64,000 nt of DNA. It comes from Acidobacteriota bacterium. Lineage in GTDB: Bacteria; Acidobacteriota; Blastocatellia; RBC074. The stretch spans positions 26,380-90,379 of the forward strand of contig JANPFP010000066.1 of the NCBI GenBank assembly GCA_031423495.1, given 5' to 3'. The notes under the pieces were generated by a model. It saw only the letters and a list, made by a program, of their open reading frames with translations. It was not told the DNA's origin and did no database searches. Position 1 is the first letter of the stretch, and every line of letters begins with the position of its first letter. The position numbers and the translations under genes were made by a program. This document shows, in pieces, positions 39,937-64,000 of the stretch.

Positions 39937-40260
39937 ATGAATTGGGTCAGCATTCGTTACCGCGATTTTTATGATTTGCCGCGCATCTTCATCGCCAGTT
40001 ATGAAGGGCGGCAATATCTTTTTGACTGCCCTTTCGATGATGCGCTTGATGATTACCCAGAGAGCTATCGCGTATACCAACTGCCGCTGTTGTCGGAAGC
40101 AGAGTTGCAAGGCTCGTGGGAACACTTGTCAGCGCGAGCGATTGATTTTCTAGGGACGCTTCCGCTGGCGGCGGTTCAATTCGATCCAACCAAACGTGCG
40201 TGCATCAATGCCGCCGTTTTCACTTCGTTGTCGCGCCAGCCAGAGTTACTGGCAGCTTAG
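39937..40260 (+). CDS. Hypothetical small protein (~107 aa)
   Basis: SD-like aaaggag 6 nt upstream of ATG (MNWVSIRYRDFYDLPRIF...); coupled to the upstream ORF. Confidence 0.35.
   Translation: MNWVSIRYRDFYDLPRIFIASYEGRQYLFDCPFDDALDDYPESYRVYQLPLLSEAELQGSWEHLSARAIDFLGTLPLAAVQFDPTKRACINAAVFTSLSRQPELLAA

Positions 40261-54707: not shown

Positions 54708-54718
<11 letters not shown>
53807..54718 (-). CDS. TonB C-terminal domain protein (energy transducer-like), with signal peptide
   Basis: Signal or TM segment [25 protein letters not shown] and a C-terminal TonB_C-like region [23 protein letters not shown]...[16 protein letters not shown]. An 11-nt overlap with the metH stop. Confidence 0.55.
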
Positions 54719-58400
<3,682 letters not shown>

Positions 58401-59752: not shown

Positions 59753-59866
59753 TTGCGTCTTTCCTGATTTTGCCTATTCGACCTGTGGGGCGTGGCCCCT
59801 ATTCATTTTCAGCCATTCCGGCAAGTCAGAGACTTGCCGCACATCACTGCGGCAAAGCCGCAGCAA

Positions 59867-60112
59867 TCACGCTTGCCTCAATTCTTCCAGCGTGAGTAAG
59901 TCCGCTTCAAAATCAGCCACGCCATAATGGATGGGAATGTCGCGGCTGCCCAGCAGTTGTTGGAACTGCCACTGGCTCATTCCGGCCAAACGGCTGGCTT
60001 GTCCGAACGTGAGCTTTTCACGTTGAAACAAGGCCAGCGCCAGTTCTTGTATTAACTCGGCTGCCGTCAGCCGAGTTGATTGCACGATCTCATCTGCAAT
60101 GACAATGCTCAT
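59867..60112 (-). CDS. UPF0175-family antitoxin-like protein (81 aa)
   Basis: LTFGQASRLAGMSQWQFQQLLGSRDIPIHYGVADFEADLLTL matches the UPF0175 consensus (…G.P..Y..EDLEED). Confidence 0.6.
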   Translation of the reverse strand: MSIVIADEIVQSTRLTAAELIQELALALFQREKLTFGQASRLAGMSQWQFQQLLGSRDIPIHYGVADFEADLLTLEELRQA

Positions 60113-60345
60113 TGTTTAACCTCCGTGTTGTTGGCGTCTCCTGCCAGTTCGCGTAAGTCCGCCAGAAAGAGCGGATCGTTCATGGCATCGCGCATCGCCG
60201 CTAGCTTGTCAGTGTCTGGCGTACGCAAGGTGACTTCCATCTTTGCGCCTTCGGTCAATGCCAGCGGTTGCAACGGGCGCAACAGCCCTTGTTCGTAAAT
60301 TACTTCAACGATCATCGTCATCGTATTTACCTCTTTCTTCAGCAA
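60109..60345 (-). CDS. DUF104 / AF2212-like antitoxin-like protein (78 aa)
   Basis: MTMIVEVIYEQGLLRPLQPLALTEGAKMEVTL matches the PF01954 consensus (IxAVYENGVLKPLEPLDLPEG). Confidence 0.6.
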   Translation of the reverse strand: MLKKEVNTMTMIVEVIYEQGLLRPLQPLALTEGAKMEVTLRTPDTDKLAAMRDAMNDPLFLADLRELAGDANNTEVKQ

Positions 60346-60572
60346 GCGGAAGTCTTCAAAATTTTCGGCGTGTATGAGTCAGCTTCAAAATCAGCCACGT
60401 CGTAATGCGTATCCTGCTGACTTGGCAATGACGGCGGTAACGCCGCCGCAAATTGTCGCTGGAACTCAACCGCTCGCGCGATGATTTCTTCCCAGTCATT
60501 TCCAGCTTCGGCTTCGATAATCAGGCGTTGTTGACGCACTTCTTTCACGATTGGGTCTTCCCACATTGTCAT
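60339..60572 (-). CDS. Small protein (77 aa) sharing the C-terminal HY[DG]VADFEAD motif with the UPF0175 gene; a paralogous antitoxin-like protein
   Basis: MTMWEDPIVKEVRQQ...THYDVADFEADSYT. The track ORF (160 aa) overlaps the AbiEii gene, so the shorter form is taken. Confidence 0.4.
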   Translation of the reverse strand: MTMWEDPIVKEVRQQRLIIEAEAGNDWEEIIARAVEFQRQFAAALPPSLPSQQDTHYDVADFEADSYTPKILKTSAC

Positions 60573-60579
60573 ACCTCTA

Positions 60580-61254
60580 TTAACTGAGCAGCAATAACTC
60601 ATCTCCGAGCGTTTGCAATTCTGCCAAAAAACTCTCGCAAGCAGGTGGCTCAATCCAGCGCACGGCTTCCCAATCAGCTTGCGTGGTTTGGCATAAACGA
60701 CGAGCGAGGTCAGCCGGATAGATGCCGGAAGATTTGCTTTGCGCTCCGCTGAGGGCAGCGCGTAATGACAAACCGAGCTTGCCGCATAAGCCCCAGACAT
60801 CGGCCACGTCACGCGGTTCATCGCGTCCGATCAAGGCGGTTAATTTATTTGCCAGAATGTTTTCGGGGCTGTCTATGCGTCCGAGTTCGGGGTAGCGCGG
60901 ATCAACCTGAGGTGTGCCGACGCGCGAGCCTACGTCGTTAATCATCTCTATTTTTAGCGTCAGGTCATCGCGTAACAACAAGGCGCGCACGAAATATTGA
61001 TCTTTCAATACGACTTGCGTTTGCCAGCGGTCTTGCCGTTCCAATGCATCAACGATGCGCTCGGCCCATAGGCCGAAACGATCATCCCAATTGACGAACA
61101 AATCGAGATCGTCAGAGAACCGATGATGCAAATAAGCCCGCGACAACGCCGTACCGCCCGTTAGATAGAAATCGGTTTCAACCGCGTTGATGACCGACAG
61201 CGCCTCGTCTTGAAAAGGATAAAGATGGTCGTAGTAATAACTGCTATCTTCCAT
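60580..61254 (-). CDS. AbiEii/AbiGii-family nucleotidyltransferase (type IV TA toxin-like, DUF1814)
   Basis: FYLTGGTALSRAYLHHRFSDDLDLFV and KLTALIGRDEPRDVADV signatures. Confidence 0.65.
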   Translation of the reverse strand: MEDSSYYYDHLYPFQDEALSVINAVETDFYLTGGTALSRAYLHHRFSDDLDLFVNWDDRFGLWAERIVDALERQDRWQTQVVLKDQYFVRALLLRDDLTLKIEMINDVGSRVGTPQVDPRYPELGRIDSPENILANKLTALIGRDEPRDVADVWGLCGKLGLSLRAALSGAQSKSSGIYPADLARRLCQTTQADWEAVRWIEPPACESFLAELQTLGDELLLLS

Positions 61255-61558
61255 CTTCTGCCTCCTTGAGTAATTCAGCCAGTAATTCAGGATGATGTTT
61301 GGGAATCCATTCGACGACGAAATCCAAACCGCGTCGTTGCGATTCAGCCCGCACCCGCGAACGCCAATGCGGCCATTCGCGTACCAGCGCCGCGAAGCCG
61401 ATCTTGCGAATCATCTCGTCGTAACTCGCCCATTCGATCAGACGCACCGCCGCCCAGTCACGATCGAGCTTTCCGCGCCGCAACTTTCCGCTCAACAACG
61501 CGTCGAACTCTTCCTGACTCAGATCGTAATCCCAAACGTATTTCGCGCGATTCGTCAT
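61244..61558 (-). CDS. Hypothetical 104-aa protein translationally coupled (11-nt overlap) to the AbiEii-like gene; possible cognate partner
   Basis: Protein-like ORF; operon context. Confidence 0.4.
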   Translation of the reverse strand: MTNRAKYVWDYDLSQEEFDALLSGKLRRGKLDRDWAAVRLIEWASYDEMIRKIGFAALVREWPHWRSRVRAESQRRGLDFVVEWIPKHHPELLAELLKEAEDGR

Positions 61559-61583: not shown

Positions 61584-62027
61584 CTAAACCAGTTCTTTCT
61601 GTCGTATCACCATCCGATAAATGCGCATCAACTTGAGCCGGACTTCGGCATCTTTCTCTCCATAAACATCGGTGTGGGCGCGATTGATGTTGGGAGGTTC
61701 TGCGTCTGGTTGATAGATCGGCGTATGCACTACGGTTTGTTCGGGTATTTGCCTTACGTCTTCGACCTTGAGTTGAATCACCGCATTGTCGTGGGGATTT
61801 CTGGCGCGGTTGCGGCACGCTTCCGGCGACGAATACTTTTTCCAATCTGTAGACATTCCGTCGGTTGATTGCGGGCGATTTCTGAAAGCGCCGGGGAACG
61901 GTTCACCGTCTGCGTCGAGTTGGTTTTTATGCACCCGCATGAAAAGCAGCGCGTCATCGGGGATTGGTTCTTTTGCCCAGACCGGCGGAGTCTCATGGTT
62001 TATCGGGTCAGCCATAGCAAGATCCAT
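61584..62027 (-). CDS. Hypothetical protein (147 aa)
   Basis: Protein-like ORF; overlaps the upstream ORF by 28 nt. Confidence 0.4.
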   Translation of the reverse strand: MDLAMADPINHETPPVWAKEPIPDDALLFMRVHKNQLDADGEPFPGAFRNRPQSTDGMSTDWKKYSSPEACRNRARNPHDNAVIQLKVEDVRQIPEQTVVHTPIYQPDAEPPNINRAHTDVYGEKDAEVRLKLMRIYRMVIRQKELV

Positions 62028-62422
62028 TCGTTGGGCAGAGCGGTATTGAGTTTCCCTTTCACGGCGTCTTGCGCATCGCCTGTGCCGTAATAGTCCGCCG
62101 GGTTTTCAGCGCGTTCGGGGATATTGATCAGCAACTCACGCTCCGCCGTGCGCCAGTGCAAATCAATACTGCCTTCTGGGCCGGGCAGGATGCGCGGCGG
62201 TTCAATCCAAACGCCGAAGCGTTGTTGAAAGGCCAGAGCCGCCAGTTTCACAAACTCAGTCGCGCGCCGCCAAGTGGTTTCCCGAAAGCTCGGACTGCCT
62301 TCTTCATCCCAATCGTCCGGCAAATCGAGAATGCGGCGCGATGCGCGCAAGGCTTCAGCCAGCGTTTGGTTCAGCGGAATTTGATGGATCGTCTCGACAA
62401 CCATAATGTTTCGTCCTCTCAA
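62000..62422 (-). CDS. Hypothetical protein (140 aa)
   Basis: Protein-like ORF, 18 nt downstream of the large upstream gene. Confidence 0.4.
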   Translation of the reverse strand: MRGRNIMVVETIHQIPLNQTLAEALRASRRILDLPDDWDEEGSPSFRETTWRRATEFVKLAALAFQQRFGVWIEPPRILPGPEGSIDLHWRTAERELLINIPERAENPADYYGTGDAQDAVKGKLNTALPNEWILLWLTR

Positions 62423-62439
62423 TATTTACCGGCTCATTT

Positions 62440-64000
62440 TTACACACGCGGCATCCCGTATCCCACCAAGTGCGCCGCCTTGCGAAACGCTTCTTCGTCA
62501 TTTTCTTTCACGGTCAGATGTTTGTCGCCCGCGCGCAGGCACAGCTTCTTCGTCCGCTCGTGCGTAGCCAGCAATTCAGCCAGTTCCGCGTTGGCGCATT
62601 CGATCAACAGCGCCGTGCCTTTTTGTTTTAACGCGCGCGCATTGCGTTCGGTAGTGATGAAAAAGGCGATGACCGTATCGGGCAATTCCTGTTCGTCGCG
62701 CGCCGCGAGGAATTCGCGCAGTTCAGTGAGGTTGCCGCCGTTCTCGACTGCGTTAAAAGCCTTGTCGCGGTCGAGCCGCCAAACGCTATCAGATTCTTTT
62801 TCGGCCCAGGTTTCGAGCAACAGGGCTTCGTCAAGCGAAAGGTTGGCGACGTTGACTTGCAAGCTGGGCAAGACGTTCACCGTCGCTTTGGCTTCGATGC
62901 CGGCGGGCGTGTAACTCTTCGTTAGTTCAAGGCAATAAGCGCCGAGCGCGTTCACGCGGAAGTAAAGCAAGCCGTCGTAACGGCTGAGAAAACTCAGATC
63001 ATCAACGCCCCACATGTCTGTGAAATCGTCGCGCGCGTGTTCGGGGTCAACATAGGCTACGTCAATCAGCCCTAGCGTGGCGGCGTATTCAAACAGCAAG
63101 GCCATCAGGTAACGCGCTTGCAAAATTTCCCAGCCGTCGTTGCCGCTATTGCTGAGGTTGCCGTAATTGGCGTCAGCGACATAGAGCGTCCACGAGCTGC
63201 GCGTAATTTCGAAGTCGAGCGCCGCCGCTTGCATGTACCGCGAAAAATCATCGAACTTGACCCACGCGCCGACGGGGCAATGTTTGAGGGCTTCGTCAAT
63301 GACGGCGCGGCGCGATTCGATGGCGGTCATGTGGCGTCCGCTTTTGCTTTGCTGGCCTTTGATGGCGTCTACGCGGCTGAACTCATCAAGCAGCTTTGAC
63401 TTGAGCCAGCGTTGCCAGAGCAGCTTCAGCGTTTCAGCGGGCGGCGCGCTCAACGCGGCGCGCCCGGTTTTGGTGAGCGCAAGTTTCTTGCTTTGCAGTT
63501 CGGCCAGCTTGCCTGCTTGCAACAACAGCGGCCAGGCAAAGGCTTTGAACGGGCCGACCTCTTGTTCCCACTTGCTCTCTTTGGGCAGCCATCCGTAAAA
63601 ATCGCCGTCGCGCAACATTGTCGTAATCTCTTTCATCGTCGCGGCTGAAGCCTGAAAGGTTTTTTCGCTGACGGCGAGCTTGCCCTTTTCGATCAAGCGC
63701 AACAGCGTCAACAAGTCTTGTGTGGCGGCGCGTTCGGTTTCGCGGCGTGTGATCGCAATTTGATGAACGACTTCACGCATCTTGGTCGGCTGGCGATATT
63801 CATACGCGCGATTGCCTGAGAGGTGAACGATCTTTTGCGCGTTCTCGTCAACGTCGTATTCCTGCTCAATGCGTTCAACGAATTCCGGCACGGCTTCGAC
63901 GGATTGCAGCCGCAAGCCTTCCGGCTTCGGCACGAATTCGAGCAAGCGCGTTCTCAAGTCATCCGGCACGATGGAGTCGTTGGCGTTGGAAAAAAGAAAC
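62440..64000 (-). CDS. Large hypothetical protein, N-terminally truncated by the window edge; possibly a helicase-associated (PF13625-like) accessory domain protein, with no Walker motifs
   Basis: The frame stays open to the window end beyond the track's GTG start. There are no NTPase motifs. The C-terminal region (LTELREFLAARDEQELPDTVIAFF) resembles helicase-associated domain proteins. Confidence 0.45.
   Translation of the reverse strand, partial: FLFSNANDSIVPDDLRTRLLEFVPKPEGLRLQSVEAVPEFVERIEQEYDVDENAQKIVHLSGNRAYEYRQPTKMREVVHQIAITRRETERAATQDLLTLLRLIEKGKLAVSEKTFQASAATMKEITTMLRDGDFYGWLPKESKWEQEVGPFKAFAWPLLLQAGKLAELQSKKLALTKTGRAALSAPPAETLKLLWQRWLKSKLLDEFSRVDAIKGQQSKSGRHMTAIESRRAVIDEALKHCPVGAWVKFDDFSRYMQAAALDFEITRSSWTLYVADANYGNLSNSGNDGWEILQARYLMALLFEYAATLGLIDVAYVDPEHARDDFTDMWGVDDLSFLSRYDGLLYFRVNALGAYCLELTKSYTPAGIEAKATVNVLPSLQVNVANLSLDEALLLETWAEKESDSVWRLDRDKAFNAVENGGNLTELREFLAARDEQELPDTVIAFFITTERNARALKQKGTALLIECANAELAELLATHERTKKLCLRAGDKHLTVKENDEEAFRKAAHLVGYGMPRV

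Follow-up and report, generated by a model that had tools for sequence, protein, structure and literature searches.

A row of five genes on the minus strand of a 64-kb stretch of an Acidobacteriota genome (contig JANPFP010000066.1; the whole stretch is referred to below as the window, and coordinates are counted from its first letter) probably represents an eroding mosaic toxin-antitoxin (TA) island. In the order of transcription, these genes encode a 104-amino acid (aa) protein, an AbiEii-type nucleotidyltransferase, a 75-aa protein (77 aa from an alternative start), an AF2212-like (DUF104) protein and a UPF0175 protein. The 104-aa gene and AbiEii appear to form one intact pair, and the other three genes are best explained as orphan antitoxins of former PIN/MazF-type modules. 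An earlier note on this DNA, made without database searches, had described three small genes downstream of AbiEii and its coupled 104-aa open reading frame (ORF), and all of these are indeed present on the minus strand; the five gene calls recur on a Logan contig with the identical sequence (L001; labels L001-L051 denote the comparison loci) and on a 104-kb NCBI contig. The UPF0175, AF2212-like and AbiEii identities given there are supported by Pfam matches above the respective cut-offs, and the proposal that the small genes are of the antitoxin type but lack their usual toxins agrees with the results of a tblastn search, which finds no PIN-type toxin anywhere in the window. The region would be the eroded end of a hypervariable TA/defense island located between a Helicase_C_3-like gene and metH, and each orphan would be left from a PIN/MazF-type module of its own, the toxin gene of which has been deleted or replaced.

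The UPF0175 protein matches PF03683 with E=1.6e-22 (79.4 bits, with the cut-off at 27.9; residues 5-72, profile positions 1-73 of 75) and has more than 160 close homologs. In three contexts among the relatives (L020-22, L023-28 and L030-34), its gene is followed on the 3' side, with a 4-nucleotide (nt) overlap, by a gene for a 159-aa PIN protein of the DUF3368 family, in agreement with the report that UPF0175 is found exclusively beside COG2405/DUF3368 (PMC5499597). In L020, this pair is encoded directly before metH and downstream of the Helicase_C_3-like gene, that is, in the same slot as in the window. A tblastn search of the 64 kb with sister-locus proteins as queries detects no homologs of DUF3368 or of the 158-aa PIN-like protein discussed below (nothing better than E=0.1; the best DUF3368 match has E=0.96). 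Immediately 3' of the UPF0175 stop codon, comparison with L020 and L030 shows that the DUF3368 ORF is still represented by its initial 7 nt, GTGATTG. This remnant is followed by palindromes that are 93-100% identical over 29-45 nt to the flanks of IS200-like Y1_Tnp genes, the matches coming from the junction alignment and blastn (L016, L017, L019, L029 and L050). The UPF0175 gene is also orphaned in L016-19, L029 and L050, where Y1-transposase genes follow the orphan copies, repeatedly in the place expected for DUF3368, which suggests that an IS200-like element is the agent of the toxin loss. In the canonical UPF0175 (COG2886)/DUF3368 (COG2405) pairs of the relatives, the toxin start overlaps the antitoxin stop; the window gene is a clear member of the family, with canonical relatives that are 80-91% identical to it, but its toxin is gone and is replaced by 7 nt of the toxin start, a mobile-element end and a foreign gene. 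The palindromic motif GCGG.T.TGCCGC..TGATGTGCGG.AAG...CTT.CCG brackets IS200-like Y1-transposase genes (copies in Table 1). The ratio of nonsynonymous to synonymous substitution rates (dN/dS) of the UPF0175 gene is 0.02-0.14.

The 75-aa protein has no match in Pfam, NCBIfam or PADLOC. It has 14 close homologs, and a profile search of 1.8 billion representatives identifies 98 clusters; an alignment scan of metagenomes yields no confirmed locus, and a genome scan yields one locus only. In four distinct contexts (L002, L003-8, L009-14 and L015), the 75-aa gene is located immediately 3' of a gene for a 158-aa protein; the two genes are 2 nt apart or share an ATGA, depending on which start codon is chosen. 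In the relatives, the 75-aa gene is found about 38 nt before metH, and its chromosomal position matches that in the window. At the DNA level, the window and L003 are homologous up to the 3' end of the 104-aa (95-aa in L003) gene and again from about 17 nt before the start of the 75-aa gene; the toxin slot alone differs, being occupied by AbiEii in the window and by the PIN-like gene in L003. The 158-aa protein shows similarity to the PIN domain profile PF01850 (E=6.5e-4, 20.8 bits, below the cut-off of 23.6), and a plasmid-encoded homolog with 42% identity is annotated by NCBI as a VapC family toxin. A relationship between the 158-aa protein and DUF3368 was considered and dropped, given that BLASTP shows none.

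A structural model of the 75-aa protein contains two helices (residues 5-21 and 25-42), then a linker that is disordered, and a short helix in the tail. Such a helical hairpin would be compatible with an antitoxin that binds its toxin through the tail. The window version of the tail is ADSYTPKILKTSAC, where the clade consensus is ADLRTLEELRAAA; conserved Leu and Glu positions have been lost and a Pro has appeared, a change that is suggestive of relaxed constraint after the loss of the partner. One further tblastn match of the 75-aa protein in the window, at 40057-40149 (E=0.003), lies inside an unrelated 115-aa ORF and was dismissed. In L015 (736-1495), the 158-aa PIN-like gene is frameshifted into 73-aa and 91-aa pieces. 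In L050, a distant gene of the 75-aa type (P0012; its acidic tail is a different one) follows not the 158-aa gene but a fragment (3-182) that looks DUF433-like by eye; therefore, the linkage to PIN proteins is claimed only for the closer 75-aa subclade. On the Thiodictyon plasmid NZ_CP020372.1 (L051, 1970-2176), an unlisted 68-aa ORF (MNDSIITEVRSIREQH...) overlaps the stop codon of the VapC-annotated gene and is probably an unannotated partner gene; its similarity to the 75-aa family is limited to an N-terminal motif and is not significant.

The AF2212-like protein matches PF01954 with E=1.5e-10 (41.8 bits, with the cut-off at 21.6; profile positions 1-45 of 59) and is 70 aa long if translated from the ATG or 78 aa from a TTG at 60345. 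The earlier note had all three small genes overlapping consecutively. This holds for the AF2212-like and UPF0175 genes, which share 4 nt (ATGA), but an overlap between the 75-aa and AF2212-like genes requires the TTG start; the ATG chosen by gene callers leaves a 17-nt spacer with a GAGG ribosome-binding site. The gene that comes next after the AF2212-like gene is UPF0175, and in the window the AF2212-like gene has no PIN/MazF-type toxin gene adjacent to it. Distant AF2212-like relatives are followed by genes for PemK/MazF-like toxins (L043, L044 and L046) or a PIN toxin (L049). The window protein resembles the antitoxins of VapBC-type modules with AF2212-like (DUF104) antitoxins in its N-terminal domain and in having distant relatives encoded upstream of PIN or PemK toxins, but it differs in that no toxin gene follows and UPF0175 starts at its stop codon.

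The sole toxin-type gene in the cluster is AbiEii, the product of which matches PF08843 (E=3.7e-15, 57 bits, with the cut-off at 22.5) and 23 PADLOC AbiEii models. By inspection, its catalytic motifs, TGGTAL...R..SDDLDLF and NKLTALIGR...RDVADV, are intact: inspection against the motifs defined as necessary for AbiEii-type toxicity (PMC3985639) finds hGG..R..DhD, KLxALxxR and the motif IV Asp all present. The 104-aa gene, which overlaps the start of AbiEii by 11 nt, encodes a protein without a match in Pfam, NCBIfam or PADLOC that belongs to a family with more than 200 homologs across Acidobacteriota, Chloroflexi, Actinomycetota and Thermoanaerobaculia. Its structural model is all-helical, with a predicted local distance difference test (pLDDT) score of 87.6, and a structural search with this model finds no solved relative, which means that it is not a winged-helix antitoxin of the AbiEi type. 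In two metagenome-assembled genomes of Caldilineales (Chloroflexi), a 100-aa homolog (56% identity) and a 220-aa AbiEii (52%) are encoded as a pair on their own, surrounded by unrelated genes in the opposite orientation, and the same pair is seen again in L050 and in the adjacent NCBI proteins NOT61694/NOT61695. Homologs of the 104-aa gene without AbiEii are present in L003 and also in L029 and L030, and the gene in this state shows dN/dS of 0.04-0.08. The 104-aa protein is a likely cognate partner (antitoxin or regulator) of AbiEii, and its relatives appear to make up a partner family of short AbiEii toxins (about 220 aa) that has not been described before. The pair is similar to the AbiE/MenAT type IV TA systems (with a DUF1814 nucleotidyltransferase) in the bicistronic overlapping operon, the small upstream gene and the intact nucleotidyltransferase motifs I-IV; the differences are that the partner is an all-helical 104-aa protein rather than an AbiEi/COG5340 winged-helix protein and that the toxin is short (224 aa).

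The UPF0175 and 75-aa genes share a segment near their 3' ends. An identical run of 17 nt, CTTCAAAATCAGCCACG, is present at exactly two sites, 59905-59921 and 60383-60399; shuffles lead one to expect only 0.06 matches, even with 2 mismatches allowed. This core is part of a 52-nt in-frame repeat (79% identity; Table 1) that codes for HYGVADFEADLLTLEEL and HYDVADFEADSYTPKIL, with the shared motif HY.VADFEAD. The earlier note attributed the corresponding HY[DG]VADFEAD stretch to partial duplication. The two segments are indeed related DNA, but a recent local event does not fit the data. The UPF0175 tail, HY.VADFEADL.TLEEL, is located within the Pfam domain (the profile match extends to position 73 of 75) and is conserved in all orthologs. 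The 75-aa tail is kept in acidobacterial orthologs that have no UPF0175 neighbor (L002, L003 and L009), whereas in the wider 75-aa family, nearly all of the 98 clusters consist of proteins of 57-70 aa that match only the N-terminal 50 positions and have unrelated, variable tails. The absence of the tail from the wider family and its retention without a UPF0175 neighbor point to a clade-specific acquisition rather than a recent local duplication. Orthologous tails are also closer to each other (28/30) than are the paralogous tails of the window (26/30). Most simply, judging from these alignments, the HY.VADFEADL..L..L tail would be native to UPF0175 and would have passed from a UPF0175 gene to the acidobacterial 75-aa subclade before the divergence of the lineages compared. 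Gene conversion of recent date between the two copies was considered and is not claimed: the three synonymous codon choices that are common to the window copies and variable among orthologs amount to a coincidence of only about 1 in 16, and orthologous tails are the closer ones. A third scaffold is seen in L029 (6602-7000), where a 132-aa protein without a family match, the N-terminus of which looks like a methyltransferase fragment, ends in EYDVADFEADLRTLQELRQL, which is also the tail of UPF0175 and the 75-aa family.

The gene that now follows UPF0175 encodes a DUF3644 protein (PF12358, E=1.8e-49, 168 bits), which also matches the PADLOC candidate defense family PDC-S19 (E=5e-112) and has about 117 additional N-terminal residues that the DUF3644 match does not cover. 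DUF3644 belongs to the HEPN family, members of which are often toxins (PMC3710099). The G+C content of this gene is 39-40% compared with about 55% in the flanks, indicating a foreign insert between the antitoxin row and metH that forms a unit independent of its neighbors, and none of the sister loci that carry the small genes contains it. The Logan contig L001, although 100% identical to the window, breaks at the DUF3644 boundary (its end corresponds to position 59825). The location of the gene beside a Y1-type palindromic end suggests that it was probably acquired recently by horizontal transfer.

Sister loci show comparable erosion and reshuffling. In L015, the 75-aa N-terminal domain is fused in frame with the AF2212-like C-terminal half (P0010, 93 aa); in L029 and L030, the 104-aa gene is joined to UPF0175, with about 30 nt left at the junction that are similar to the AF2212-like 3' end; in L050, the modules are arranged in a different order with HicAB added. 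Across the relatives, the modules occur in many orders and subsets. The five-gene order 104/AbiEii/75/AF2212/UPF0175 is not found in a second genome at any divergence, so that the search for similar arrays proposed in the earlier note returns only this strain (L001 being identical to the window), with other orders and subsets in the relatives.

Under the scenario of an eroding island, the 75-aa gene would have lost the preceding 158-aa VapC/PIN-like gene, with AbiEii now in its slot; the AF2212-like gene would have been left without a toxin gene after it; and UPF0175 would have lost the downstream DUF3368 gene, with the end of an IS200-like element and the foreign DUF3644 gene now in its place. 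The three small genes may still be co-transcribed behind AbiEii. The UPF0175 gene would be kept by selection, probably because its product neutralizes or represses, in trans, DUF3368-type toxins that are encoded at other sites or brought in by mobile elements, and the toxin-binding tail of the 75-aa protein might be drifting. A survey of Klebsiella documents orphan antitoxins as a common outcome, and the roles proposed for them are anti-addiction, cross-talk or that of mere remnants (PMC7192599). As in that survey, the antitoxins in the window are kept in their original flanking context after toxin loss; the difference is that here three orphans of three families stand head to tail, two of them with a grafted C-terminal peptide.

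Several observations weigh against this interpretation or limit its reach. An ancestral long array with differential loss and a series of repeated insertions both fit the data. The AF2212-like relatives that are paired with toxins are distant, with 42-58% identity over the N-terminal 38 residues. The 158-aa protein, in addition to its sub-cut-off PIN score, has no match in PDB (sequence or profile search) or NCBIfam, and the 75-aa and 104-aa proteins are predicted to be antitoxins from gene position and modeled shape only. The suggestion of tail decay comes from five disruptive substitutions and not from a significant dN/dS excess, dS also being larger on the window branch. The orphan UPF0175 genes of the window and L016 differ by dS 0.92 and dN 0.022; such very strong purifying selection implies that the orphan is not a dead remnant and that some present function is required. 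Finally, the window covers 64 kb of the genome, and the partner toxins could be encoded elsewhere.

A different explanation is that the orphans are not left over but are selectively kept behind AbiEii as a trans-acting, anti-addiction set directed against PIN, DUF3368 or MazF toxins encoded elsewhere or incoming. The UPF0175 gene is intact, orphan copies of it are under strong purifying selection (dN/dS 0.02-0.10) and are found in four independent contexts, the ribosome-binding sites and the coupled start and stop codons of the row are kept, and anti-addiction is an established concept in published work (PMC7192599). The tail is found on three N-terminal scaffolds, including the 132-aa protein of L029, and the shared tail would let two different scaffolds bind one kind of toxin. 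We consider this explanation unlikely as a whole: no target toxin is identified, the 75-aa tail of the window lacks conserved Leu and Glu residues and contains a new Pro, the array is restricted to this strain with different subsets in relatives, and most of the purifying selection seen on pairwise branches may date from before the toxin loss. An extension of the same idea, offered tentatively and with low confidence, is that the 16-residue acidic segment Y-x-V-A-D-F-E-A-D-L-R-T-L-E-E-L is a portable module neutralizing PIN toxins that was copied from UPF0175 onto at least two unrelated scaffolds (the helical-hairpin 75-aa family and the 132-aa protein of L029), with the toxin-less row kept as a trans-acting shield against the DUF3368/VapC toxins that invading elements carry. 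Were this the case, the island would be a natural example of antitoxin domain-grafting and anti-addiction.

The two roles that the earlier note envisaged for the small genes fare less well than the eroding island. That they constitute an unconventional multi-antitoxin module controlling AbiEii is very unlikely, even though the five genes are tightly packed on one strand without a convincing terminator between them and the 75-aa gene follows AbiEii exactly where it follows its PIN partner in relatives. The 104-aa/AbiEii pair is autonomous in Caldilineales, each of the small genes is tied to a different toxin of its own in relatives, the 104-aa gene occurs without AbiEii and UPF0175 without either of them (L003, L029 and L030), and the five-gene order is confined to this genome. 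The notion that the small genes are antitoxins or regulators of the downstream HEPN-family (DUF3644) protein is even harder to sustain and can be given hardly any credence. The genes are on the same strand, 114 nt apart, and the toxicity of many HEPN proteins (PMC3710099) would suit such a pairing; yet the DUF3644 gene has 39% G+C against 55% for the small genes, fits the candidate defense family PDC-S19, is separated from UPF0175 by the end sequence of a mobile element and is missing in every sister locus with the small genes.

If the island is decaying as proposed, the locus is a well-documented case of chromosomal TA island decay in which toxin genes go first, through deletion, the insertion of mobile elements or the exchange of cassettes at gene boundaries, and antitoxins persist, fused or re-tailed. 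The phenomenon itself is known, and current views of these TA systems are not overturned; what is new are two unannotated partner families and the grafted antitoxin tail. The former are by-products for annotation, a widespread 104-aa partner family of short AbiEii proteins and a helical-hairpin family encoded directly after VapC/PIN-like genes. The shared tail provides a testable example of antitoxin specificity peptides possibly moving between scaffolds.

Table 1. Positions of the genes and sequence elements in the window and, where a locus label is given, in comparison loci
Feature	Position	Strand	Evidence or remark
Helicase_C_3-like gene	62440-63969, continues past ORF listing	-	weak Helicase_C_3 match
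140-aa and 147-aa overlapping pair	62000-62422 and 61584-62027	-	ORFs
104-aa gene	61244-61558	-	ORF, likely AbiEii partner
AbiEii/DUF1814 nucleotidyltransferase, 224 aa	60580-61254	-	PF08843
75-aa gene (77 aa from MTMW, 60572)	60339-60566	-	ORF
Tail copy 2, 3' end of 75-aa gene	60356-60407	-	encodes THYDVADFEADSYTPKIL; same reading register as copy 1
AF2212-like (DUF104) gene, 70 aa	60109-60321	-	PF01954
UPF0175 gene, 81 aa	59867-60112	-	PF03683
Tail copy 1, 3' end of UPF0175	59878-59929	-	encodes IHYGVADFEADLLTLEEL
114-nt spacer	59753-59866		toxin-start remnant and palindromic element end
DUF3644 gene, 439 aa	58433-59752	-	PF12358, PDC-S19
metH (methionine synthase)	54708-58400	-	ORF listing; island anchor
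Helicase_C_3-like homologs	L003 1036-2895; L020 615-2558; L029 4666-6588
Palindromic motif copies	L016 5255-5300 and 6026-6070; L029 8340-8384; L050 2497-2525
104-aa family with AbiEii	L035/L036 3001-3975

The bounds of the island in this group of Acidobacteriota (Blastocatellia-like) are the Helicase_C_3-like gene on one side and metH on the other, and synteny with L002, L003, L009 and L020 shows that metH marks the equivalent island position in related genomes. A scan of the region for promoters and terminators finds sites that are no more numerous than in shuffled sequences. The Helicase_C_3-like gene encodes a protein of about 620-650 aa with a weak match to the family profile (E=1e-4) and is conserved in several related genomes, where it borders the variable island on the upstream side. 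Between this gene and the five-gene row, the overlapping 140-aa and 147-aa genes have no Pfam match, and the 140-aa protein weakly fits the C-terminus of PADLOC PDC-M32A (E=9e-6). Homologs of both are encoded together in L050; L015 has a homolog of the 140-aa gene and only the first 23 or so codons of the 147-aa gene. The 140-aa/147-aa pair may be another two-gene conflict module.

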